Assembly: GCA_035285165.1 (NCBI GenBank)
Contig: JAYKHP010000007.1
Location: 17,380 to 81,379, forward strand
From: Vampirovibrionales bacterium
Lineage (GTDB): Bacteria > Cyanobacteriota > Vampirovibrionia > Vampirovibrionales > Vampirovibrionaceae
Direction of reading: 5' to 3'
DNA length: 64,000 nt
Part shown: positions 892 to 29,527 of the stretch, one piece after another
Layout: every line of letters begins with the position of its first letter
How positions within the stretch are numbered: position 1 is the first letter of the stretch
The notes under the pieces: generated by a model
The model's database searches: none
Seen by the model: the letters and a program-made list of their open reading frames with translations, nothing else
Told to the model about the DNA's origin: nothing
Position numbers and translations under genes: made by a program

Positions 892-2187
892 TTACTCTGG
901 AAACGCGTCCAGTAAAGCCCTGGCCACTGCCACCGAAGCGGCTTCCTGGTGGGAATTCTGCATGGTTTGCCTGATTTTTTGAAACGCTTCTTTTTGGCGC
1001 AAGTGTTCGGCGTGTGTTGGATCAAGAAGGGGAAGTATGCTGCCTGCAATGGCTTCAGGGGTCGCCCTGTCCTGCCAGAACTCTGGAACAACTGGCGGCA
1101 GGGAATTTTGCATGGCGCGGTTAATATCGGGAATACAGCATAGGATATTGGGCAGCCCGATAAACGGTAGCTGCAACAGCCTGACGGCGATTTGGTAAAT
1201 GATGGGGTGTAGTTTATAAATCAAGACCAGCGGGGTGCCATAAAAAGCCGCTTCAAGCGTGACGGTGCCCGATGCCAGAATCACGGCGTCGGCCATGCTT
1301 AAGATGGCGTGATTGGCGTTTTCAAAAACATGAAAAACAGGTTGTGATTGGCCTTGCTGGGAGCCTGACGCGGGTATTTGAGCGATAGCCTCCGCCAATT
1401 TTTTTTCAAACGCTTCGGCTTTAAAATGCGATGACCTGGCGATGACAAACTGTATTTCCGGTGATTCTGGCGGTTTTTGCGCCTGAATGAGGGCGGCCGC
1501 TTTTACCATTGGCGCCAGCAGATAATCCAGCTCAAGGTGGCGTGACCCCGGAAAGATGCCGATAATGGGCCGCTTGGGGTCTAGCGCGTTATTTTTTATG
1601 GCGTTGTTGTCTGCCGCATGTTCGGCGCTGAATGTTTGGCAGAAGGTTTCTTTGGAAACGGCGGGCGGCAACTGTGTTGAAAGTGGATGACCGACGTAGG
1701 TGACGGGAATCCCTTCTGCTTCATACAGCGCTTTTTCAAAGGGAAAAATACAGAAGACATGATCAATGTGGCGCTTTATTTTGTTTAATCGCCCCCGCCT
1801 TGTGGCCCAGACCTGTGGGGGGATAAAGTAATACAGCTTGGGGCATCGATCTTTAAAACGCTTTTTCAGCTCACTGGCCAGCCATAAGTGAAAAACACCG
1901 TAATCGATAAACAGGATGGCTTGGGGCATCCAGGTTTGGCAGTGCTTCAGGATTTTTTGCCCCAGGCGCCAGTGGTCAAACGCGCCTAAAACGCTCCCAA
2001 ATCCCACGCGGGCCATTTTGGATTGATCGCTGATAAGTGGGGTGCCCTTGGCCTGAAGGTGTGTGCCGCCGACAGCGTGGATATCGATTGACGCATTGCA
2101 AGAAGCGCGAAGCGCATCCACAATGTGGGCCGCGTGCATGTCGGCGGAAGGATCGCCGGTTAGAATCAGAAGCCGCTTCAGCGTCAT
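892..2187 (-). CDS. lpxB: Lipid-A-disaccharide synthase
   Basis: 431-aa ORF with LpxB glycosyltransferase motifs (LILTGDPSADMHAA..., GIFPGSRHLELDYLLAPM..., SGTVTLEAAFYGTPLVLIYK) and typical LpxB length. Confidence 0.9.
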   Translation of the reverse strand: MTLKRLLILTGDPSADMHAAHIVDALRASCNASIDIHAVGGTHLQAKGTPLISDQSKMARVGFGSVLGAFDHWRLGQKILKHCQTWMPQAILFIDYGVFHLWLASELKKRFKDRCPKLYYFIPPQVWATRRGRLNKIKRHIDHVFCIFPFEKALYEAEGIPVTYVGHPLSTQLPPAVSKETFCQTFSAEHAADNNAIKNNALDPKRPIIGIFPGSRHLELDYLLAPMVKAAALIQAQKPPESPEIQFVIARSSHFKAEAFEKKLAEAIAQIPASGSQQGQSQPVFHVFENANHAILSMADAVILASGTVTLEAAFYGTPLVLIYKLHPIIYQIAVRLLQLPFIGLPNILCCIPDINRAMQNSLPPVVPEFWQDRATPEAIAGSILPLLDPTHAEHLRQKEAFQKIRQTMQNSHQEAASVAVARALLDAFPE

Positions 2188-2202
2188 ACTGCGCTCTCTT
2201 TA

Positions 2203-3066
2203 TTACTTTTCAGAACCTGGATGCGACACGCTGACAATGACCATCTTGTGACGATTGGCGTATGCGATCATCGCTTCCTTTTCCAGAAACAGCGTTTCGT
2301 TGGCCTCGGTTGCCAGCGTATCTAGTCCTGCTTGTCGCATCGTTTGCAAGGTGCGAAGACCAACGGTGGGAACATCGAAGCGTTGATCCTGATCGGGTTT
2401 TGCCACTTTGACCACTACCCCGCCACGGCTTTTCTTCCACTTAAACAAGCCTGGCAAGGGAAGACGGGACTGGCCTGAAATCAGTAAACCCGAACGTTTC
2501 AGGCAGGCGTCGGTGCCTTCAATGGCTTCAACGGCAATCAACATACCGTCCTTTATCACCACTGTCTGACCCACGTCCAAGCGGCCCATTTCACGGGCGA
2601 TTGAAAACCCGTAGGCGATATCGGCCAATGCTTGTCCTTGTGGCGCTATTTTGGTCAGGCAAGCCTCTTCGGCAAAAAGATCCGTCAGGAAAAGCGACTG
2701 GGGAAGAATTTCAAACCCTTTGTCGCGAAGTTGGCTGACCAACCAGAGCATGACATCGTCATCGGTTTTCCTAAGGACGCTCCTGAACGCTTCAATCGCA
2801 AGCGTGTCCATGCGCGGGTCGCGCAGCAAAATCCATTTGTTTACTTTTCCCGCAAACACAAGGTGAGATACCTCGGCGGCTTGCAGGTGGGCCAGGTTTT
2901 GCGACAACATACCGGGAATCATTGTTACCGTCTTTTTACCGCAAGCATGCTCAAGCGCTGAGGCGTTGTTCTTGTCGATGGTGAAGGGGATGACCTCAAT
3001 CCCTGCGGCGATGGCGTTTTTTGCCGCCACGACAGGAAGTTCACCTTCTCCTGCGATAATGCCCAT
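2203..3066 (-). CDS. lpxI: UDP-2,3-diacylglucosamine pyrophosphatase LpxI (DUF1009)
   Basis: The track ORF runs to 3279, but the conserved LpxI N-terminus MGIIAGEGELPV starts at 3066. The upstream 71 codons are low-complexity and probably untranslated. The gene is adjacent to lpxB, as in lpxI-containing lineages. Confidence 0.8.
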   Translation of the reverse strand: MGIIAGEGELPVVAAKNAIAAGIEVIPFTIDKNNASALEHACGKKTVTMIPGMLSQNLAHLQAAEVSHLVFAGKVNKWILLRDPRMDTLAIEAFRSVLRKTDDDVMLWLVSQLRDKGFEILPQSLFLTDLFAEEACLTKIAPQGQALADIAYGFSIAREMGRLDVGQTVVIKDGMLIAVEAIEGTDACLKRSGLLISGQSRLPLPGLFKWKKSRGGVVVKVAKPDQDQRFDVPTVGLRTLQTMRQAGLDTLATEANETLFLEKEAMIAYANRHKMVIVSVSHPGSEK

Positions 3067-3463
3067 TCGTTTCGGTTTTTGCCAATCACCCCAATGTCTG
3101 GCCTGCCGCCCGCCAGACTGTTCGCCAGTAGCTGTAGAAAGCAAGGAGGCCGCCGAAGGGGTGCTTGTCTTCTGCTTTTGCTTCTGAGGCTTGTTTTCAA
3201 AGGGGTGCTGGTAGCGTGGCATACAAAGCGGATCCGTTAAATCGCATTCCTGTTTAGAGAGCCTATTGAGAGAGCCCATGACGAACAGAAGCTGATATTA
3301 GCATAAACTGCCCGCCACTAAGCCTCTACGCTGCAGGGTGAAAAACTTTGTGTGACGGATGGGCTTGTGTCGGCGCAGGGTGTGCCAAATGGATGAACTG
3401 GCACAAGGGGTTGCGTTTGTGCGCTTGTTTTTGGGCTATAATAGCCCTTTCGCTCTGTCGTGA

Positions 3464-3537
3464 ATGTCCGTTTCCCATCAAGCGCCCTTATTAAAGTTCT
3501 GATACAGGTTCTGAAAAGCTTAATGGGAAACGGACAT
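3464..3537. repeat. Perfect 15-bp inverted repeat (ATGTCCGTTTCCCAT / ATGGGAAACGGACAT) with a 44-nt spacer, followed by a second 8-bp-stem hairpin (3541-3576)
   Basis: Read directly from the sequence. The arms are at 3464-3478 and 3523-3537, then GCATCTGC...GCAGATGC at 3541-3548 and 3569-3576. They lie in a ~600-bp non-coding region between lpxI and the exonuclease gene, next to a TATAAT-containing palindrome GGGCTATAATAGCCC (3433-3447). Confidence 0.7.
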
Positions 3538-3682
3538 CCGGCATCTGCGGGCGATTAAACCCAATGTGGCAGATGCGGTTACGCATTGATAGGCAAGCGT
3601 CTATTTCGTTGGGGTTTCCCGTATTGACCCATTAAGGCCCCTTTCTATAAAGGGCTTTAATCACAATAAAACCTGATAAACC

Positions 3683-4807
3683 ATGACTAAAAAGGATGCC
3701 GCCGTGGAAAAATCATCCGTTCACCATCGTGATAAAGACCGTGATAAGGATCGTGATAAAGACAAGGGGGATAAATCCCAGGGTCATGACCCTATCAACC
3801 CTTTGGCCTCGTCTTCCTCCTCCCTGTTTCAGGCCGGAGGCCCCTTGATTGTCCTGGATACTGAAACAACGGGGCTGGATCACAAAACGGAAAAGCTGAT
3901 TGAAATTGCCGCCGTTAAACTGGTGGATGGGGAAGTGACCGAGACGTTCTCCTCGCTGGTCAATCCGCAAAAGCAGATTCGCCGCTCCAGCTTCATGATC
4001 CACGGCATTAGCGACGAGCAGGTGGAAGGCGCGCCGCTTATCGAGGAAGTGTTGCCGCAGTTTCTGGAGTTTGTTGGGGATTTGCCCTTTGTGGCGCATA
4101 ACGCCATTTTTGATTACAGTTTTATCAACGAGGCCTGTAAGGCGGTTAACAGCCAACGTTTCCAGAACCACCGCATTGACACCTTCGAGATGTACCGAAG
4201 CGTTTTCCCCGATGAGCCGTCTCACGGTCTTTCAGCACTGTTGGCCCGCTTTGGCTTTGACTCCGACGTCAAACACCGCGCGTTGGATGACGCCATGTGC
4301 TTGGCGAAGGTCTATCCCAGGCTTCAGATGCTTTATAACCAGAAATACGCATGGCAGTTGGCCCAACTGCCGAATATCGACTATCTCCTGGAGCGCTATT
4401 TGAGGCTGCAAAAGGCAATTCAGTCGATGCAAAGCGAAATGAGCGACCTGAAGGAAGTGTTCAAGCTGCATTTTCAGCAGGGCGGAAAGCCGGTCGGCAG
4501 TTCGTTTGGCGATACGATGATTTCGACTTATCGCCGCTCTTATGCCTATGATGATGCCCGGGTTTGGGCATTGGCGCTTGAGGCGGGGATTCAGGAGCGC
4601 CTCTTCAAGCTTAACCCGAGGGCAGCGGATAAGCTGATCGATGGCGATCGCTTGCCGTCAGAGCAGCGTGAGCAGTTGCTTGATGCGAGAATTAGCATGC
4701 ATGAAAGCCGCCAGGTATCGTTTATCAAGACGCAGACCCTGGTCAACGAGGTTAAGGAAAGCGAAGAAGAAACCTCTGAAGAAAGTGCGGAAGCCCCGTT
4801 GGCGTAA
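3683..4807 (+). CDS. DEDDh 3'-5' exonuclease (DnaQ/epsilon-like) with a low-complexity KDR-repeat N-terminus and a ~190-aa C-terminal domain of unknown function
   Basis: Exo motifs VLDTETTGL (Exo I), HNAIFDYSFI (Exo II) and HRALDDA (Exo III); 374 aa. Confidence 0.8.
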   Translation: MTKKDAAVEKSSVHHRDKDRDKDRDKDKGDKSQGHDPINPLASSSSSLFQAGGPLIVLDTETTGLDHKTEKLIEIAAVKLVDGEVTETFSSLVNPQKQIRRSSFMIHGISDEQVEGAPLIEEVLPQFLEFVGDLPFVAHNAIFDYSFINEACKAVNSQRFQNHRIDTFEMYRSVFPDEPSHGLSALLARFGFDSDVKHRALDDAMCLAKVYPRLQMLYNQKYAWQLAQLPNIDYLLERYLRLQKAIQSMQSEMSDLKEVFKLHFQQGGKPVGSSFGDTMISTYRRSYAYDDARVWALALEAGIQERLFKLNPRAADKLIDGDRLPSEQREQLLDARISMHESRQVSFIKTQTLVNEVKESEEETSEESAEAPLA

Positions 4808-10994: not shown

Positions 10995-11522
10995 ATGTTA
11001 AAGATGGTTCTTATTTTAGTTTTTCTTGTAATTGCAGGCATTCTTGCTTTTGCTACCACTAAACCTGACACATTTCGTGTTGAACGCTCGATTATAATTA
11101 ATGCGCCATCTGAAAAAATCTATCCTCTCATCAGCAATTTCCATCAATGGCAAATCTGGTCGCCTTATGAAAAGATGGATCCCAACATGAAACGCGCTTT
11201 TGAGGGGCCAGAAAGTGGAAAGGGTGCGGTCTATTCATGGAATGGTGCTGGTAAAGTCGGTCAGGGGCGGATGGAAATTCTGGAAACGCAGCCCGCATCC
11301 AAAGTGATCATCAAGCTTCATTTTGTAAAGCCCTTTGAAGCGACCAATACTACTGAATTTACCATTATTCCAGAAGGTAAACAAACAAAGGTCACCTGGG
11401 CAATGTCTGGCATTCAACCATTCATGGGTAAAGTGATTAGCGTTTTCTTTAATTTGGATCCCATGATAGGGAAAGATTTTGAAGACGGTCTACAGAATCT
11501 CAAAAAAGCTGTCGAGCCTTAA
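10995..11522 (+). CDS. SRPBCC (START/Bet v1-like, polyketide-cyclase-type) family protein with N-terminal TM anchor
   Basis: 175 aa. The gene looks visibly AT-richer than its neighbours. Confidence 0.55.
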   Translation: MLKMVLILVFLVIAGILAFATTKPDTFRVERSIIINAPSEKIYPLISNFHQWQIWSPYEKMDPNMKRAFEGPESGKGAVYSWNGAGKVGQGRMEILETQPASKVIIKLHFVKPFEATNTTEFTIIPEGKQTKVTWAMSGIQPFMGKVISVFFNLDPMIGKDFEDGLQNLKKAVEP

Positions 11523-21503: not shown

Positions 21504-21590
21504 TTTTTACGACAACTCTGGCGAGTCTGTTTGTTTTATGACAACTCTGGCGAGTCTGTTTTTTTACGACAACTCTGGCGAGTCGTCTTC
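21504..21590. repeat. Three tandem ~29-bp copies of tt(t)TA[C/T]GACAACTCTGGCGAGTC..., of which the last copy is the 3' end (including stop) of the 1198-aa gene
   Basis: Read directly: copies at about 21508-21533, 21537-21561 and 21566-21590. The reverse complement of copy 3 encodes ...EDDSPELS followed by the stop. Confidence 0.8.
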
Positions 21591-24500
21591 GTAAATCATG
21601 ACGTCGGGTTCGGGTGGGAGGCGGCGATCGAATTGCGCGTAATTCAGCCTTGAAACCCTTGGGCCATAGCCTTTTTCATTAAGAGGAGAATCCGCCTGCT
21701 CTTGATCCTGAGGGTTTTGACTGCGGCTTACGGTAGCCTCTTCCTGAATCTCGCCGGTCAAGTCCAGCGATGGCATATCAACGGAACGGGCTTCAAATGC
21801 CTGGTGGCGGCTTTCCTCATGCAGATCGGGAGCTGGATAACTGCCGTTATCATTCCCGTTATTATGTTCGTTATTATCCATGTTGAAACGTGCCCGAATC
21901 ACGTGCGGGGAGGTATATTGCGTTAAATGCAACGGCTGGGCTTCGTCAATGCGACGCTTGATCTTGCGAATCGCCATCTGGCAAACACTGCTGATAATCT
22001 CGCTGCTGCCCACCGCTTGCAGGTCAGCCAGCATCGTTAAAGCCCGATCAGTCGAGCCGATTTGTCCAAGGCTTCTCACGCAGGCCCACAGCAACGCTGG
22101 CGGCATGGTTGCTCTTGTCGCCTGGGGATAAACCTGCGTTGAAATGGCTGCCAGGATGGCATCTTCCGCCTGCCTTGCCGGACGTTTGCCAAGCGTTCGC
22201 ACCACCGCGATTTTCACGTCCTCATCCTCCTCAGGATCAAGCAACGTATTGGCCAGCGCGTGAAAAGCACCCTGCTCATCCATAAAGCTGAGCGAGTCGG
22301 CGGCCAGCGCGCGAATCGCCGGATCGCTGTCCTGGTGTAATCTTGCAATCAGGGCCTTAATGGCGTCTGGCCCCGGGTATTTCTGTAAGCCGACGCAGGC
22401 GTATTTTCGGATTTCGGGCACCGGATCGTCAATCGCATCCAGTAAGCTGTTTTGCACAAAAGGCGATTCTCGATCATTAGACGGATTGTGATCATCTGCC
22501 AGAAACTTGATGGAGCAGAGGCGTACGCTTTCATCCGCGTCTGATAGGCCCTTGATGAACACGGCGGTCAAATCGTGCGACCAGCGGTATTTTACCAACG
22601 CCTGGTATGCCTGGGCGCGAATGGCCTCATATTCATCGTCCAATGCTTCCAACATCGATTCCACAAAGCGCTTGTGAAAGTCCGGCTCGGTGGTCTTTTG
22701 GCTAATAAGCGCAAGGTTTTGCGCCGCGTATTCGCGCACCATCGTATCCATGTCTTTGAGGGCGGTAAACAACGCCTGCCTGGATTTTTCCGAATCGATC
22801 AGCGCCAGGTTATTCAGCGCTGTCACTCGAATGGCGGGCTGTTCGGATTTCAGGCTGTCGATAAAAAGCCTTTCGAGAAATTCGGGCATATCCGTATTGC
22901 CAAGCGAATGGCAAAGCGAAAGGACTTCTTGGGTCTTTGCCCGATCCAGCTCGCCTGTTTGAATCGAAAGGGGAATGATTTTTTTCAGGTAACGCAGTTT
23001 TTCTTCCGTCGGTAAATCAGCCTCGACGCTTGCGGTTTTGCTTTCCAGAAACTCGCGGTCAATGCGGTTCTGGAAAATAAACCACTTGTCGGCAAACGGC
23101 GTCTGGTTGGTGACGGCGGACTTGCTTTTGGCGAAGGGCTGAATGAACTGGTACTGCGCCAGCCGTTGCAGCACCTCATACACAAACGTTTCACCAAGCT
23201 GCTGCGAGAGGTAAACTTCCGAAATAGCGTCACCCGCCTTGAAGGGCTGACCGCCAAATGTTTTTAGCAAGGCCGCAATGGCCTTTTCCAGTTTTTCCTC
23301 CTGCTGGAGAAACGCCAATTTGATGCGCGTGTATGACAGTTCAAGCAGGTCTTCGGGTTGATCGATGCAAAGCCGGTTATAGAACTCCAGATCCAGGTGC
23401 CGGATGCGATTGGCGTGTGAACGTTCAATGAGATAGCGCGCCGCGCGGTTATGCCAGTAAGGGTTTCCTTGTGTCAGGGTGTAAACCTGTAAGTGGACGT
23501 TTTCGTCAAATTCAAGCCCGGCGCTATGGAAGCGCATGCGGAAAAGTTTTCTGGCTTGCGCCTCGTCCAGGGGGGCAAGCAGGAGCTTGGTTCTAAATTG
23601 GTGGAAAAGGTTTCCCCCGAGGCTATTGCTCTGCCCCAGCGTATCGCAGCCTAGTAGCAGCATCAGGCGGGTTTGTTGAGGGATGCCGGGGCGTCCCCCC
23701 TCTCGATTGTCTCCCGTTTCATTCAACAGGTCATACAGCATTTGTTTCAGTTCATTTTGCTGCGGCTGGGGAATATCGCTAACCCCTTCCCAGTGATCGA
23801 AGAGCAACAGCAGCGAGCTGTCGATGCTGGCAATGCCCTGGTTGATGAAGTCGAAAACCTGTTGCAGATGGGCGCTCATTTCGGCTACCGGCCCATGATC
23901 CTTTTGCTTAGGTGTTCTGGCTTTTTTCTTTGCAAGATTTGAAGAAAGAGCCGAGGCGGGTTCGGCATCCGAATCAGTATGCTGATCAGCGCTGTCCGTT
24001 TCTTGCTCCTGGTTCTGCAAAGTGTTCTGAAAAAACTGGGGACGCTTGGCTTCCCAGTCTTGGGTATAATTCAGATCAAACAAACGGTTGCCGTCCTTGA
24101 TTTCATCCGAAAGGGCAAACGCGGTTTTCAGACGGGGGTCGATGGGGTTGGCCAGTTGGCAGGCCAGCACCACCCAGGGGTTGAGGATAAATTTTACCAG
24201 CTTGTCGATGTGCGTGTTCAAGGACAACCTGAGTTTTTTCATGGTGGGCAGCGAATTTTTAATGGCCTTGGCCAGTTGTTCTTCGCTTGAAATTTTCGGG
24301 GGCGAGGATTTTTGGGAAGTTTTTGCCGGAGTGCTTTTTTCCGTATTACTTTTCTCAAGCCCACTTTCAAGCCCGTTTTCAAGATGAATAGCATCCTGAA
24401 GCTGTGCCAGCGATACGGCGCGGATGAGATCCTGGGTTTCCCAAACCAGCCCGATGTTGGCCAATTCTTCGTTAATGGCGATTAGTGCTTCCTGTATCAG

Positions 24501-25160
24501 CCGATCCGCATCCTGACGAAGGCTGTCGATTAAGGTTACATAGAAATGCTGTGGCGTTTTGAAATGATGCAGCCTGCAGTCAATGATGCGGGAATAAACC
24601 GACTGGCGAACCAGTTCGATAAAGCTGTCGATCAGGGCGGTTTTCCCCATGCCGGTATCCGCTGTCAGCAGCACCGCTTTTAGTTGTCCCTGGCGAGAGA
24701 GGTGAATCAGCTTGAGCAGTTGGCGCAATTCTGTTTTTCGTCCCACGATTTCGACGGTTTCAACAAGGTAAGCGTCGTTCGTGGCCGCAGCGCCCGCATA
24801 AGGCGAGGAGGCCGCCAACTCTCCCGGCAGCATCGAGGCAGTGTCGTTTCGGTTTGAAAATCCCATCCCTGAAAGTCCAAGCCCGGAGAGCCCCAGATTT
24901 TGGCTGAAAAGGCTTTTTTCCGCTGTCGCCGACGGCAGGGGAACGAGGTGCTCAAGTCCATGGGGCTCTGGTTGAGAACGGCTCTTATCGGCACCCATGG
25001 CGTTGATTTTCTTACCTGTATCCGTGTTACCGCTTTGAGAAGGTGCGGGAGAGTCCTGCTGCATTAGCGTAGGAGAGCTTGCGGGTTGCCGATTGAGCGC
25101 TTTTGGGTTGGAAGGGGTTTCTGAAAAGCCGGTCTGATCGGTCGGATAAGAAGAACTCAT
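21564..25160 (-). CDS. Large P-loop NTPase (AAA_16/STAND-like) with a disordered S/P/Q-rich N-terminus and a C-terminal array of HEAT/PBS-lyase-type repeats
   Basis: 1198 aa. Walker A is LLTADTGMGKTALIDSF, candidate Walker B is SLLLLFDHWEG, there is a long helical middle, and there are at least 6 HEAT-like repeats (PAIRVTALNNLALI, DTMVREYAAQNLALI, YEAIRAQAYQALVKY, ESVRLCSIKFLAD, VPEIRKYACVGLQKY, DPAIRALAADSLSFM, EDVKIAVVRTLG). Confidence 0.7.
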   Translation of the reverse strand: MSSSYPTDQTGFSETPSNPKALNRQPASSPTLMQQDSPAPSQSGNTDTGKKINAMGADKSRSQPEPHGLEHLVPLPSATAEKSLFSQNLGLSGLGLSGMGFSNRNDTASMLPGELAASSPYAGAAATNDAYLVETVEIVGRKTELRQLLKLIHLSRQGQLKAVLLTADTGMGKTALIDSFIELVRQSVYSRIIDCRLHHFKTPQHFYVTLIDSLRQDADRLIQEALIAINEELANIGLVWETQDLIRAVSLAQLQDAIHLENGLESGLEKSNTEKSTPAKTSQKSSPPKISSEEQLAKAIKNSLPTMKKLRLSLNTHIDKLVKFILNPWVVLACQLANPIDPRLKTAFALSDEIKDGNRLFDLNYTQDWEAKRPQFFQNTLQNQEQETDSADQHTDSDAEPASALSSNLAKKKARTPKQKDHGPVAEMSAHLQQVFDFINQGIASIDSSLLLLFDHWEGVSDIPQPQQNELKQMLYDLLNETGDNREGGRPGIPQQTRLMLLLGCDTLGQSNSLGGNLFHQFRTKLLLAPLDEAQARKLFRMRFHSAGLEFDENVHLQVYTLTQGNPYWHNRAARYLIERSHANRIRHLDLEFYNRLCIDQPEDLLELSYTRIKLAFLQQEEKLEKAIAALLKTFGGQPFKAGDAISEVYLSQQLGETFVYEVLQRLAQYQFIQPFAKSKSAVTNQTPFADKWFIFQNRIDREFLESKTASVEADLPTEEKLRYLKKIIPLSIQTGELDRAKTQEVLSLCHSLGNTDMPEFLERLFIDSLKSEQPAIRVTALNNLALIDSEKSRQALFTALKDMDTMVREYAAQNLALISQKTTEPDFHKRFVESMLEALDDEYEAIRAQAYQALVKYRWSHDLTAVFIKGLSDADESVRLCSIKFLADDHNPSNDRESPFVQNSLLDAIDDPVPEIRKYACVGLQKYPGPDAIKALIARLHQDSDPAIRALAADSLSFMDEQGAFHALANTLLDPEEDEDVKIAVVRTLGKRPARQAEDAILAAISTQVYPQATRATMPPALLWACVRSLGQIGSTDRALTMLADLQAVGSSEIISSVCQMAIRKIKRRIDEAQPLHLTQYTSPHVIRARFNMDNNEHNNGNDNGSYPAPDLHEESRHQAFEARSVDMPSLDLTGEIQEEATVSRSQNPQDQEQADSPLNEKGYGPRVSRLNYAQFDRRLPPEPDVMIYEDDSPELS

Positions 25161-25361: not shown

Positions 25362-26018
25362 ATGCCAATGTATTCAACGCGTTCTTTGTTTAAAGCCCTC
25401 TTGGCTTTGCTGTTGTTTTTACCTGTTTCGGCGGCGTTTGCCGAAGCAGGTAAGCACAATGCTCCTCCGCTTCGTTCAGCGTCAGATATCAGCGATTCGC
25501 CATCCAGTAACCCCTACCTGTCGTTACGTATACCAAAGCCCGGTTCTGTGGCGCCTGGTATTCAGGTAAAGACGGCGGAGGGCACGACGCTTACGCTGAC
25601 CCAGTACAAGGGAAAAAAGAATGTGGTGCTGGTGTTTTACCAGGGGCATTTCTGCTCGGTCTGTGCCCATCAGCTTGCCAATCTCCAATCCCACTACGGC
25701 GATTTTAAGCTGCAGGAAGCTGAAATTATCGCAATCAGTGCGGATAGCCAATACCTGGCCCTCAGAACACAAGGAGAGCTAGGTCTTAGCTTTCCGGTTG
25801 TGCCGGATTCGGCTAAATCAATCATTGCGCGCTATGGCGTTGCCAACGTGGCCAAGCAGGGAATCGCCTGGCCGTCGGCTTTTATCATTGACAAGCAGGG
25901 CAAGCTTCGCTTTAGCTATGCCGATTCTCGTGGACATCGTTTGCACAGCAACGAGCTGCTGTCCCAACTCTCCAATATTACGGGAAAACCTTCGCCAAGC
26001 TTGGGTTATGAAGAGTAA
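25362..26018 (+). CDS. Secreted peroxiredoxin/thiol peroxidase (AhpC-TSA/redoxin family)
   Basis: Signal peptide (LLALLLFLPVSAAFA) and a redoxin fold with FCSVCAHQ. Confidence 0.7.
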   Translation: MPMYSTRSLFKALLALLLFLPVSAAFAEAGKHNAPPLRSASDISDSPSSNPYLSLRIPKPGSVAPGIQVKTAEGTTLTLTQYKGKKNVVLVFYQGHFCSVCAHQLANLQSHYGDFKLQEAEIIAISADSQYLALRTQGELGLSFPVVPDSAKSIIARYGVANVAKQGIAWPSAFIIDKQGKLRFSYADSRGHRLHSNELLSQLSNITGKPSPSLGYEE

Positions 26019-26146
26019 TTTATATTAAGAAATTCAATCGTAAATAAAACCAAAACGAATTAGTATCGCTGGAACATTCACAATGTCATTATCAAAAATA
26101 TTAATGTCGTACCGGAAGCTGGTTTAAATCAGTCGTGAAAAACCGA

Positions 26147-26461
26147 TTAATTAATCGGGCTGTGTGTAGGCTCTGACTCTAGTTTTTCAAGTAAACCACT
26201 CTCAAGATGTTTTTTGGCCCATTTCAGAACAATGCGTTGCTCGTCTTTGTTCTGGAAAAGATCTTCGTAATAAAGAGAACGAAGCGAGTCGTAGCTTGTA
26301 TTGAAAAATTCGGCCAATTGGCGAAGATTGGTTGGGTTGGGGACGCGTTGCGCTTTTTCAAAGCGCATGATTTGCACGCGAGATATCCTAGTGCCTTTTT
26401 CGATGTCAAGCAATGAACGCTCTCCGCGCAATTCACGCAGTTTTCGGCTTAAGTGCAGCAA
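26147..26461 (-). CDS. XRE-family helix-turn-helix transcriptional regulator
   Basis: 104 aa; N-terminal HTH (LRELRGERSLLDIEKGTRISRVQIMRFEKAQRVPNPTNLRQLAEFF). The 16-bp palindrome CCGATTAATTAATCGG (26143-26158) overlaps the stop and is followed on the minus strand by T5, so it probably acts as its terminator. Confidence 0.7.
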   Translation of the reverse strand: MLHLSRKLRELRGERSLLDIEKGTRISRVQIMRFEKAQRVPNPTNLRQLAEFFNTSYDSLRSLYYEDLFQNKDEQRIVLKWAKKHLESGLLEKLESEPTHSPIN

Positions 26462-27031
26462 TTTGACAGATTCCTTTAAGTATGTTAACGTATGCCTTGT
26501 TACCGTAAAAGAAACGGTGATGACTCACTCACAGCAGTTATAGGGTTATATAGTCATGTCGTTGCCTGTAGAAGAATGCTGTGGTTATATTCTGGAAATA
26601 GAGACTCTTAGAAGCATTCCCGCTTTTTTAACGGCTGAAAGCTTTTAAAGATTCTATTGAAACAATAATATATATTGTAAATACAATAATACCATACTGA
26701 CTAGGGTAGACTACATCACCCAAAAGAGTGTTTCATCTACCATTCCTCGGAATGAGTTTCATGTAAGCCAAAGTATCATTGAGAAAACGCAAGTAGTAGT
26801 ACGGAAGATATCGTGCAGATACAAGTTTTTATACACAGTACATCTTTAGTGTTGAGTGTATCAGGGTTATACAAGCTTGGCAATCCCTCTCTTGCCCCGT
26901 ACCGCAATTAAGCCTGATTGTTTGCTTTCCGTCTTGTTACTTTTTCTGTTACAAAATTGTGTTTTATTATTTCCACCACAGTATCTAACCAGTATAATTA
27001 CGTCGATTTACTTAGTTAATGTCGTTCATTC

Positions 27032-27063
27032 AGCCCTTTCACCTTTGAAAGGGCTTTTTTTTT
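27032..27063 (+). terminator. Strong Rho-independent terminator (10-bp perfect stem AGCCCTTTCA/TGAAAGGGCT, 4-nt loop, T9)
   Basis: Read directly. It closes a ~570-nt ORF-poor, AT-rich stretch downstream (on the + strand) of the XRE gene's divergent promoter. Confidence 0.8.
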
Positions 27064-27230
27064 GATAACGCTGTAAATTGTCCAACGCGCAGGCTTTTAC
27101 GGCCCCTGATTCGTCCGGCATTTAATATAACTCATCCCGCCCATTCTCATTTTGCCATTTTAAGACTAAGTTACTTAAAGCTAACCTGTCTTATTTGCAT
27201 TTTTATTCACAAAGAAAGGTAGGTCTCAAA

Positions 27231-28322
27231 ATGACCCAAACGCAAACCAGTCCGCTTAAACAGGAATCATTGGGCGTTCAAGCCAAAGGTTATGCTGCGA
27301 TGACCCCAAAAGCGCCTTTAAAGCCTTTCTCGTTCGAGCGACGAAAGCCCAATGCCAACGACGTGTTAATTGATATCCGCTATTGCGGGATTTGCCATTC
27401 GGACATCCATCAGGCTCGTGATGAATGGGGTGATGCCCTCTTCCCGATGGTGCCGGGTCACGAGATTGTCGGTATCGTTTCTGAGGTGGGCGAAAAGGTT
27501 ACGCGCTACAAGGTGGGCGATCGCGTGGGCGTTGGCTGCTTTGTCGATTCCTGCCGCCAGTGCGAACCTTGCCGTCATGATCTTGAGCAGTATTGTGAAA
27601 ACGGGATGACCGGCACGTACAACGCAATGGAACGGGATGGGGTGACACCCACGTTTGGCGGCTACTCCAACCACATCGTCGTCAACGAGGATTACGTGTT
27701 GGGAATTCCTGACAATCTCTCTCTTGATGCCGCCGCCCCCCTGCTTTGTGCTGGCATTACGTTGTATTCTCCCCTGATGCACTGGAAAGCGGCTCCCGGT
27801 AAGAAAGTGGCGATTATCGGCCTGGGAGGACTTGGCCATATGGGGGTTAAGCTTGCCCATGCACTTGGGGCGGAAGTTACCGTTTTAAGCCAGTCATTGA
27901 GAAAACAGGAAGATGCTAAGCGCTTTGGGGCGGATCATTTTTACGCCACCGCCGATCCGGCAACTTTTGAAAAACTGCAGGGTCATTTCGATCTGATCAT
28001 CAACACGGTGTCAGTCGATATGGACTGGAACGAGTACCTGAACCTGCTGAAGCTAGACGGCACGATGGTGGTGATTGGCGTTCCCGAAAAGCAGGTGCCG
28101 CTTGGCGCGTTTCCGCTTCTTTTAAAACGTCGCAGCCTGGCGGGCTCGCTAATTGGCGGGATTAAGGAAACACAGGAGATGTTGGATTTCTGTGGCAAGC
28201 ATAATATCACCTGCGATATCGAGTTGATTCCGATTCAGCAGGTGAATGAAGCTTATGAGCGCGTGATCAAAAGTGATGTCCGCTACCGCTTTGTAATTGA
28301 TATGGCCTCGCTGGAGAAGTAA
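27231..28322 (+). CDS. Zinc-dependent alcohol dehydrogenase, cinnamyl-ADH/YahK-like NADPH aldehyde reductase
   Basis: GICHSDIH catalytic Zn motif, structural Zn cysteines ([15 protein letters not shown]) and a GLGGLGHMG Rossmann motif. Start at MTQTQ (27231) with AAAGAAAGG upstream; the track ORF start at 27195 is less likely. Confidence 0.85.
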
Positions 28323-28347: not shown

Positions 28348-28380
28348 GTCCCTCTCCCCTTGTGGGAGAGGGACTTTTTT
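28348..28380. terminator. Bidirectional Rho-independent terminator between the ADH gene and prpC (11-bp stem GTCCCTCTCCC/GGGAGAGGGAC, T6 on the + side, A-run on the other)
   Basis: Read directly. Confidence 0.65.
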
Positions 28381-28396: not shown

Positions 28397-29527
28397 TTAT
28401 CGTGTTTCAAGCGTTGTATAGGGGCGGTTGCGATCGCCTTCGTATAGAACTTTCGGGCGAATCAGCTTGTTGTTGTCAAGCTGTTCAATCACATGGGCCG
28501 TCCAGCCCGCAACACGCGAGAGCGCGAAAATCGGGGTGTAGATTTCAATGGGCAGGCCCATCATGTAATATACGTAAGCCGTGGGGAAGTCGACGTTGGG
28601 CAGAATGTTCTTCTCGCGCTTAATCGTGCTTTCAACGATGGTGGCAATCTCGTGCCACTTGGTTTCACCCAGTTGCTGGGACATCTTGCCTGCCATTTCG
28701 CTCAGGATAAACGCCCTGGGGTCACCGGTCTTATAGGCGCGATGTCCAAAGCCCATGATTTTTTTCTTTTTTGCAAGCGCGTCCATAATGTAGGCTTCGG
28801 CTTTATCGGGCGAACCGATTTCAATCAGCATTTTCATCGCCTCCTCGTTGGCCCCCCCGTGAAGCGGGCCTTTGAGTGCGCCAATGGCCGAGACAACACC
28901 GGAATACATATCGGAAAGCGTCGAGGTCGTCACGCGTGCGGCAAACGTCGAGGCGTTAAACCCATGATCGGCGTAGCAAATCAGGGTGGCGTCAAACGTC
29001 TTGGCGAAATAAGGGTCGGGCTTTTTGCCCAGTAACGTGTATAAAAAATTCTCGGAATGATTGAGGCTATTGTCGGACTCAATCGGTTCCTGTCCCTGGT
29101 TGATCCGGTAGCTGTGGGTAATCAGCGCCGGGAATTTTGCGGTCAGACGAACGGCCTTGCGCACGTTTGCCTCATGGCTGTTGTCCGTCAATTCAGCATC
29201 ATAAAAGCAAAGCATCGCAACACCGGCGCGCAGCAAATCCATTGGATGAGCCCCTTGCTTGGGCAGCGTCCGAAAGGCATCGGTAATCTGCTGGGGAATG
29301 CCACGCTCTTTTTTTAGCGTGTCAGAGAATTCAGCCAACTGGGCTTTTGAAGGCAGTTCACCGTAAATCAGCAGGTAGGCGGTTTCTTCGTAAGTCGATT
29401 TGTCCACCAGGTCGCGGATGTCATAGCCGCGATACATCAGGCTGTTGATGTCTGAGTTGACGAAGGAGAGTTTTGTCTCGCCGGCGATGACGCCTTCAAG
29501 CCCCGGACTGTATGCGGCTGTTGTCAT
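28397..29527 (-). CDS. prpC: 2-methylcitrate synthase (citrate synthase family)
   Basis: 376 aa; citrate-synthase motifs (GYGHRVYK-type: GFGHRAYKTGDPR). Called prpC because of the adjacent prpB and prpD. Confidence 0.8.
   Translation of the reverse strand: MTTAAYSPGLEGVIAGETKLSFVNSDINSLMYRGYDIRDLVDKSTYEETAYLLIYGELPSKAQLAEFSDTLKKERGIPQQITDAFRTLPKQGAHPMDLLRAGVAMLCFYDAELTDNSHEANVRKAVRLTAKFPALITHSYRINQGQEPIESDNSLNHSENFLYTLLGKKPDPYFAKTFDATLICYADHGFNASTFAARVTTSTLSDMYSGVVSAIGALKGPLHGGANEEAMKMLIEIGSPDKAEAYIMDALAKKKKIMGFGHRAYKTGDPRAFILSEMAGKMSQQLGETKWHEIATIVESTIKREKNILPNVDFPTAYVYYMMGLPIEIYTPIFALSRVAGWTAHVIEQLDNNKLIRPKVLYEGDRNRPYTTLETR

Follow-up and report, generated by a model that had tools for sequence, protein, structure and literature searches.

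An ORF-poor stretch with a strong terminator beside an XRE-family gene of a Vampirovibrionales bacterium, read as a regulator control region joined to the upstream segment of an inserted dehydrogenase gene

We analyzed a 64-kb stretch of a Vampirovibrionales metagenome-assembled genome (MAG), hereafter the window, to which all motif and terminator counts refer as a whole. Between an AhpC/TSA-type peroxiredoxin gene and a Zn-dependent alcohol/aldehyde dehydrogenase (ADH) gene, it holds a minus-strand gene for an XRE-family helix-turn-helix (HTH) regulator and, divergent from this gene, a stretch poor in open reading frames (ORFs) that carries a strong intrinsic terminator. A first-pass annotation, made from the sequence alone, took the terminator to imply a non-coding RNA (ncRNA) or small-protein gene under XRE control. 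We read the stretch, with a probability of about 0.5, as an autoregulated XRE control region followed by the lineage-specific upstream segment of an inserted ADH gene, with an insulating terminator. The evidence that carries this reading is conservation: compared to related loci, only the XRE-proximal 280 nt of the stretch are conserved, and the distal 490 nt, including the terminator, have no counterpart. Our results are best explained without a dedicated and conserved gene for an ncRNA or a small protein in the stretch. Its main features are as follows.

26147-26461, minus strand: XRE-family HTH regulator gene, 104 aa, TTG start (ORF list, Pfam, protein comparison)
26462-26520, minus strand: conserved block directly before the XRE start, with a Shine-Dalgarno (SD) motif (alignment with relatives)
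26499-26515, minus strand: degenerate operator-like motif GTTACCGTAAAAGAAAC, one mismatch to GTWAC-N7-GTWAC, 38-54 nt before the XRE start codon
26652-26738, minus strand: non-coding block, conserved and taken as the XRE promoter region (83% identity to the relatives L005 and L006)
26739-27031, no strand: AT-rich lineage-specific spacer (no counterpart in relatives, no credible ORF, no significant structure)
27032-27063, plus strand: strong intrinsic terminator with a perfect 10-bp stem, a 4-nt loop and T9 (hairpin of -15.2 kcal/mol)

Close orthologues of the XRE protein are few. Only five were found in a collection of 5.8 billion proteins, all on short metagenomic contigs (L002-L006). L005 derives from JGI 3300053109 and L006 from ENA ERZ27321119; the source metagenome of the window is SRR19514063. 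Sensitive blastn and MAFFT alignments identified two non-coding blocks common to the window and the nearest of these relatives, L005 and L006. The block at 26652-26738 is 83% identical to both L006 and L005, compared to 73-75% for the XRE coding sequence. It contains a predicted minus-strand promoter, with the -35 hexamer TAGTCA (26703-26698) separated by 18 nt from the -10 hexamer TACAAT (26679-26674), and L005 and L006 carry the same pattern as TAGTAA-N17-TACAAT. A 17-bp palindrome, ACAATA-N5-TATTGT (26662-26678), overlaps the predicted XRE -10 hexamer; it is one of the palindromes previously placed at approximately 26650-26690, with a spacer of 5 nt rather than the 7 nt given then. The block also holds the conserved upstream element ACTCTTTTGGGTGAT.

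The first-pass annotation had placed a plus-strand promoter, TTGAAA...TAAATA, in this same region. TTGAAA is indeed conserved in four lineages, with palindromes beside it. However, the motif TTTCAA-N17-TATACT is found in L002, L005 and L006, ending 147-167 nt before the XRE start, and the conservation of TTGAAA is explained because it is the reverse complement of the TTTCAA -35 hexamer on the XRE strand. On the plus strand, TTGAAA (26657-26662) and TAAATA (26678-26683) lie 15 nt apart, TAAATA lacks the final T of a -10 hexamer, and the -10 candidates that follow TTGAAA are poor and differ by lineage (TAAATA in the window, ACTCTA in L006 and AATTTA in L002). The proposed promoter, with its poor -10 hexamer and 15-nt spacing, is thus better read as the complement of an XRE-strand -35 element.

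The second block, directly upstream of the XRE gene, includes the SD motif AAGGA 10 nt upstream of the start and the degenerate operator-like motif. L002, L005 and L006 each have one exact copy of GTWAC-N7-GTWAC, in every case 36-52 nt ahead of the XRE start. We considered RNA covariation as an account of the hairpin upstream of the XRE start and rejected it; as the GTTAC/GTAAC half-sites are themselves conserved, a DNA operator fits this proximal hairpin better. The arrangement suggests that the XRE mRNA may have a long 5′ untranslated region of approximately 150-200 nt, with autorepression through these sites. We also note a 14-nt inverted repeat (26474-26487 and 27167-27180, 86% complementary), the copies of which put a TAAC/GTTACTTAAAG-like sequence approximately 15-50 nt upstream of both the XRE and the ADH start codons. 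In the copy beside the ADH gene, GTTAC-N6-CTAAC comes close to the operator-like motif but is spaced differently. The whole pattern may be due to chance.

Beyond these blocks, similarity ends. Homology to L006 stops at 26738; L006 continues for another 107 nt, which have no match anywhere in the window. The interval 26740-27230 has no match, apart from one 20-nt motif, in L002-L006, in a phage-like metagenomic contig (L007) or in four loci with ADH homologues (L008-L011).

The gap as a whole measures 1212 nt from the AhpC/TSA stop (26018) to the ADH ATG (27231), with a GC content of 0.34-0.45 compared to approximately 0.50-0.57 in the flanks, so that its earlier description as a visibly AT-richer gap of about 1.2 kb holds. 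So does that of a stretch divergent from the XRE gene without a credible ORF, which extends 769 nt from the XRE start to the ADH ATG, or 733 nt to the start of a TTG-extended ADH ORF at 27195. On a crude gene map, the 733-nt stretch (GC 0.37) is the longest low-GC, ORF-free gap of the 64 kb, and an independent gene caller called no gene between the XRE and ADH genes. Several other origins for the gap were rejected. GC skew shows no switch there, as would be expected of a replication origin; there are no tRNA genes to suggest a tRNA-linked integration site; and a repeat or mobile-element origin of the spacer is contradicted by the lack of a second copy in the window and by short repeats at chance level. 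Nor does the stretch resemble a pseudogene remnant, since its stop-to-stop frames have no match in relatives and a 69-aa frame, described below, has no homologue (the other frames were compared with the relatives only).

Gene order in the relatives supports a division of the stretch at the end of the conserved part. The genes on either side, and a further terminator, are as follows.

25362-26018, plus strand: gene for a secreted AhpC/TSA-type peroxiredoxin (Pfam AhpC-TSA, E = 1.5e-28), convergent with the XRE gene and adjoining it in L002-L005
27231-28322, plus strand: gene for an Ahr/YahK-like NADP-dependent alcohol/aldehyde dehydrogenase, the Zn-dependent ADH (domain and family matches)
28348-28380, plus strand: predicted ADH terminator, the second strict one, facing the end of prpC (28397-29527, minus strand)

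Beyond the ADH gene, on the minus strand, lie genes for 2-methylcitrate/citrate synthase II, PEP-mutase/ICL and MmgE/PrpD, which form a prpDBC-type operon. Wherever the five contigs L002-L006 extend far enough, they show the XRE gene converging on the same AhpC gene, with the same AAA16/HEAT gene next in order. Because this synteny is kept in the relatives, we consider the XRE gene a fixed chromosomal gene. In L002 and L003, prpC is the next gene upstream of the XRE gene and shares its strand, across a gap of 367-402 nt and with no ADH gene. As prpC abuts the XRE region in these relatives, parsimony suggests that the lineage of the window gained the ADH gene by insertion between prpC and XRE. 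ADH homologues with 75-80% identity occur in Leptospira, Legionella, Nitrospiria, Terriglobia and an archaeon, and at the six homologue loci compared (L008-L011, L016 and L017) the neighbors are unrelated to those in the window, a distribution pattern typical of a horizontally mobile gene. The homologue loci L008-L011 show no similarity to 26740-27230; for L016 and L017 the comparison covered gene context.

The AAA16/HEAT gene (21564-25160, minus strand) encodes a 1198-aa protein with an AAA_16 (STAND-like) ATPase domain and C-terminal HEAT repeats. It is conserved beside the AhpC gene in all related contigs, and a peptide-pattern scan found no relative of the protein among 185,579 species-representative genomes. 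Genome collection scans with the XRE protein, as with this neighbor, likewise found no relative.

A stable stem-loop followed by a U-tract identifies 27032-27063 as an intrinsic (Rho-independent) terminator, as predicted from its sequence. The perfect 10-bp stem and T9 are as the first-pass annotation described them; its term GC-rich overstated the stem, in which 5 of the 10 pairs are GC. The terminator is unidirectional, since no A-tract stands in front of it. Strict terminators, defined as a perfect stem followed by T6 or longer, number only two in the 64 kb compared to 0.21 expected from shuffles; both face the plus strand, and together they bracket the ADH gene exactly. Canonical terminators seem rare in this genome.

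At the other end of the gap, the XRE gene has a weak predicted terminator of its own.

26143-26158, minus strand: palindrome CCGATTAATTAATCGG spanning the XRE stop codon, with a T-run (TTTTT) behind it on the minus strand only

This is the palindrome previously noticed over the XRE stop. A terminator scan found no plus-strand intrinsic terminator from the AhpC stop to 27032, and the convergent XRE and AhpC genes of L002 overlap. With no plus-strand terminator of its own and with this overlap in L002, transcription of AhpC would therefore continue into the XRE gene in antisense. In the XRE-prpC gap of L002, two terminator-like hairpins (426-453 and 626-648) have the same facing as the terminator at 27032. 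They point away from the XRE gene toward where prpC ends, lack an ORF ahead of them and belong to a locus that has no ADH gene. Separately, a 14-nt direct repeat, TCAAACAACATCAA, occurs twice in this gap of L002.

The anatomy, conservation pattern, synteny and lack of coding or RNA-family signal are observed; the protein that binds the motifs, the promoters and the target of the terminator are what we infer in the following mechanism. The first part of the stretch (approximately 26462-26740) would be the control region of a solitary, chromosomally fixed XRE regulator. Its dimer would repress its own gene through the palindrome over the -10 hexamer and the GTWAC-N7-GTWAC-type site in the leader, a form of negative autoregulation. 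The second part (approximately 26740-27230) would be lineage-specific DNA that either arrived with the ADH gene when this was inserted between prpC and the XRE gene or arose afterward. The terminator at 27032 would serve mainly as an insulator, halting plus-strand transcription ahead of the ADH gene, whether such transcription came from AhpC read-through antisense across the XRE gene or from initiation within the spacer. An insulator of this kind would shield whichever gene follows: ADH in the window, prpC in L002.

Were this reading true, little would change, beyond the description of a solitary XRE control region in a poorly studied, uncultured lineage. The Vampirovibrionales belong to the non-photosynthetic sister group of Cyanobacteria. 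The case would also show that an "orphan" terminator may be nothing more than a border mark of an inserted gene; for genome scans this means that an orphan terminator in AT-rich DNA is insufficient to call an ncRNA. The decisive clue in our case is conservation, which ends at 26738. A literature search yielded nothing relevant.

The protein itself is well assigned. Residues 7-58 match HTH_3 (PF01381) with 27.6 bits compared to a Pfam gathering cutoff of 23, which bears out the first-pass call of a 104-aa minus-strand XRE regulator and classifies the protein, by sequence, as an XRE/HTH_3 (Cro/C1-type) transcriptional regulator. It is 100% identical to a protein of an NCBI "Vampirovibrionales bacterium" MAG. 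The gene lacks an adjacent co-oriented toxin gene in the window and in its relatives, with the convergent AhpC gene downstream and 367-769 nt of non-coding DNA upstream. As it stands alone, it does not fit a type II toxin-antitoxin system with an XRE antitoxin.

The closest functional likeness is to autoregulated XRE/Cro-C1-type HTH repressors such as phage cI/Cro-like proteins and RstR. Shared with these are a small HTH_3 protein, palindromic 17-bp sites over its own promoter and in the leader, and relatives, at 54-63% identity to the window protein, that sit in phage early regions. In contrast to cI/Cro-like systems, the window gene has neither a divergent cro-like gene nor surrounding prophage genes, and unlike phage repressors it is fixed beside prpC and AhpC in a Vampirovibrionales clade. 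With the RstR model it scores 27 bits, far under the cutoff of 80.

These more distant relatives were added by profile search; the metagenome scan gave only L007. This 5-kb metagenomic contig carries a phage-like early region (1266-4553) in which small ORFs, an XRE homologue 63% identical to the window protein, a YqaJ-like exonuclease, RecT and a DnaQ/RNase T-like exonuclease follow one another in the same direction. Of two further relatives, one (P0130, 54%) lies within arrays of small co-directional ORFs with a Gam-like gene, and the other (P0129, 56%) is chromosomal. A 75-aa XRE homologue (54%) also occurs inside an array of small co-directional ORFs in L013 (376-6646) and likewise in L014 and L015. 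The L013 array includes a Mu Gam/Gp157-like gene and has a divergent HTH gene pair at its start; it is probably from a phage or prophage.

The window locus did not show such an association. No DNA match was found in phage and plasmid collections and no relative in IMG/VR, and searches of viral, phage and plasmid proteins returned generic HTH similarity only (32-44%). The PADLOC and NCBIfam matches of the XRE protein cover the HTH only and lie under the cutoffs. The PADLOC match, to RmrA, is confined to the HTH part of that profile (positions 16-70 of 380; E = 4.8e-6), with no partner genes, which places the locus, as judged from its sequence, outside the known anti-phage defense systems of PADLOC. 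A phage immunity switch would call for a divergent ORF beside the XRE gene, and none that is credible or conserved was found in the window, L002 or L003. Because the flanks are syntenic housekeeping genes (prpDBC, AhpC and AAA16/HEAT) and there are no phage or plasmid DNA matches, we conclude that the XRE locus does not lie within a prophage. Its more distant relatives show that the XRE family has phage-borne members, and the window gene may be a domesticated one.

The earlier proposal of a phage-derived or defense-associated layout is accordingly borne out only for the relatives at 54-63% identity, in the phage-like modules of L007 and L013-L015; the window locus itself is fixed and has no phage, plasmid or defense match. 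Similarly, the pairing of an XRE regulator with a palindromic, conserved upstream sequence stood up, while the inclusion of the terminator in a conserved XRE module did not, as it sits in the lineage-specific, ADH-linked segment.

We compiled the RNA and coding evidence for the stretch, including the Rfam scan and the search for peptide conservation that the first-pass annotation had called for. No Rfam 15 family matched at gathering thresholds anywhere in the window, and sub-threshold matches within 25900-27400 were driven by the terminator hairpin only. The best of these, to the Betaproteobacteria toxic small RNA (RF02278), scored 25.8 bits against a gathering score of 50. It shares with that family the terminator hairpin and U-tail only; the family-specific 5′ part is missing, and we therefore do not consider it a member. 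Fold z-scores were -1.8 for 26690-27063 (mostly from the terminator), -0.65 for the XRE leader and -1.6 for 27004-27235, and nothing unusual was folded beyond the terminator hairpin. On the coding side, the 69-codon ORF and the best ATG-initiated peptide pointed out earlier both exist. The former (26856-27065) has a GTG start and reads through the terminator; the latter, at 26556-26648, measures 30 aa (approximately 29 aa in the earlier account). A search of 1.84 billion representatives gave the 69-aa ORF no real homologue, the one match being low-complexity (E = 7.6e-4), and neither ORF has a Pfam match. No stop-to-stop frame of the stretch, these included, has a peptide-level relative in L002-L007. 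No plus-strand ORF that begins in the stretch, as far as 27180, combines a length of at least 10 codons with an SD motif 4-12 nt ahead of its start. With nothing of 26740-27063 conserved and no Rfam, fold, SD or ORF signal, the ncRNA or small-protein gene implied by the terminator lacks a counterpart in these data.

Two explanations that would give the stretch a product of its own can be weighed on this evidence. The first-pass model, a plus-strand ncRNA of approximately 370-400 nt that starts from the TTGAAA promoter near 26660, is repressed by XRE and ends at 27063, can draw on the conservation of TTGAAA and its palindromes in four lineages and on L002, which also has an ORF-less terminator facing away from the XRE gene. 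We nevertheless judge it very unlikely. Its -10 candidates are poor and not conserved, its TTGAAA is fully explained by the -35 of the XRE-strand promoter, its body from 26740 on is not conserved even in the nearest relative L006, and its fold z-score of only -1.8 comes mostly from the terminator. A small-protein gene seems extremely improbable, although candidate ORFs exist: the 30-aa and 69-aa ORFs and a hydrophobic 33-aa TTG ORF (26918-27019). The last of these stops 13 nt before the terminator stem and in this resembles a type I toxin. Set beside type I toxin-antitoxin systems, this ORF is hydrophobic; it has no SD motif, no relative in L002-L007 and no repeat copy in the window. None of the candidates has an SD motif or is conserved in relatives; the 69-aa ORF crosses the terminator, with its sole match, at E = 7.6e-4, of low complexity; the 69-aa and 30-aa ORFs match nothing in Pfam; and the gene caller called none of them.

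Other explanations turn on two features of the spacer just upstream of the terminator.

26936-26952, plus strand: GTTACTTTTTCTGTTAC, a candidate second binding site and the only exact GTWAC-N7-GTWAC in the 64 kb
26970-26998, plus strand: promoter-like TTTCCA-N17-TATAAT, 10/12, beginning 18 nt after the 26936-26952 motif

One exact GTWAC-N7-GTWAC in 64 kb compares to 0.08 expected, and 18 of 20 bases at this site match the L002 site beside its XRE gene. The promoter-like sequence lies 34 nt upstream of the terminator stem. Its predicted transcription start is at approximately 27005, 27 nt before the stem, and the 26936 site is centred approximately 61 nt upstream of that start. Six sites in the 64 kb, this one included, score at least 10/12, and the chance of at least one such plus-strand site in shuffles of the stretch is 0.17. 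We note that the scoring uses an E. coli-type consensus, which may not apply in this phylum.

A short, lineage-specific small RNA (sRNA) could run from this promoter, starting at approximately 27005 and ending at approximately 27063. Its approximately 58 nt would consist of a 27-nt single-stranded 5′ part, the hairpin and the U-tail, with the GTWAC-N7-GTWAC site near -61 offering XRE control. A promoter of 10/12 with a perfect TATAAT, a motif found once in 64 kb against 0.08 expected and a strong terminator all favor it, and many trans-acting sRNAs have such a promoter-terminator architecture. It is unlikely nonetheless, given that a plus-strand site of at least 10/12 arises in 17% of shuffles of this AT-rich stretch and that the Rfam matches are sub-threshold and cover the terminator hairpin only. 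Nor does its putative 5′ part prefer to pair where XRE or ADH translation begins: by energy, its duplexes with the start regions of XRE, ADH and AhpC do not rank among the best of the window. The same promoter might instead drive the ADH gene through regulated read-through of the 27032 terminator, which would make the segment a terminator-containing 5′ leader. Promoter, terminator and gene share one strand, and there is no promoter-like plus-strand site at 27064-27230. We regard this leader as quite unlikely: the predicted start is only 27 nt from the stem, with no antiterminator pairing visible and no competing helix in the folds that would suggest a riboswitch or attenuator; no riboswitch, leader or other Rfam cis-regulatory family matches; the terminator-to-ATG distance is 170 nt; other Ahr/YahK-like genes have short, unrelated upstream regions; and the E. 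coli-type promoter consensus may not hold here. In general, orphan terminators that mark sRNA genes or 5′ leaders share with this one a strong stem and U-tract, the lack of an upstream ORF and a promoter-like site close by. They differ from it in that here no Rfam family reaches threshold, no conservation is shown and no alternative structure is seen. Given that the 27032 terminator borders an inserted gene, it is at least as likely to be an insulator or a sequence that was carried along.

Several points weigh against our reading of a control region joined to an insulated ADH segment. The near-consensus 26970 promoter, preceded by the window's sole exact GTWAC-N7-GTWAC, looks more organized than a passive spacer would. 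The arrangement is also not general, since L003 lacks a terminator facing as the 27032 terminator does and has a prpC-oriented one. No sigma-70-like promoter was found on the plus strand between the terminator and the ADH start, and the ADH gene might thus depend on read-through of the terminator. The L005 and L006 contigs end before the region homologous to 26850-27230, and non-conservation there rests on L002, L003 and L004. A transcribed RNA may end at 27063, perhaps a non-conserved, lineage-specific sRNA or leader.

These points allow a further hypothesis, which we put forward tentatively and consider improbable. A domesticated phage-type XRE protein may have acquired a second operator at 26936-26952 and through it may control a new promoter-plus-terminator unit at 26970-27063 that yields an RNA of approximately 58 nt or a terminator-gated leader, thereby wiring the acquired ADH gene into its circuit. 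If true, the locus would be a compact case in which a resident phage-type repressor has captured the regulation of a horizontally acquired gene.

Two other places in the window stood out. At 49686-50744, 1059 nt lack an ORF of 90 aa or more at a GC content of 0.51, and no Rfam family matched there at gathering thresholds; smaller genes are probable. A 175-aa ORF at 10995-11522 has a GC content of 0.41, compared to approximately 0.52 in its neighbors.

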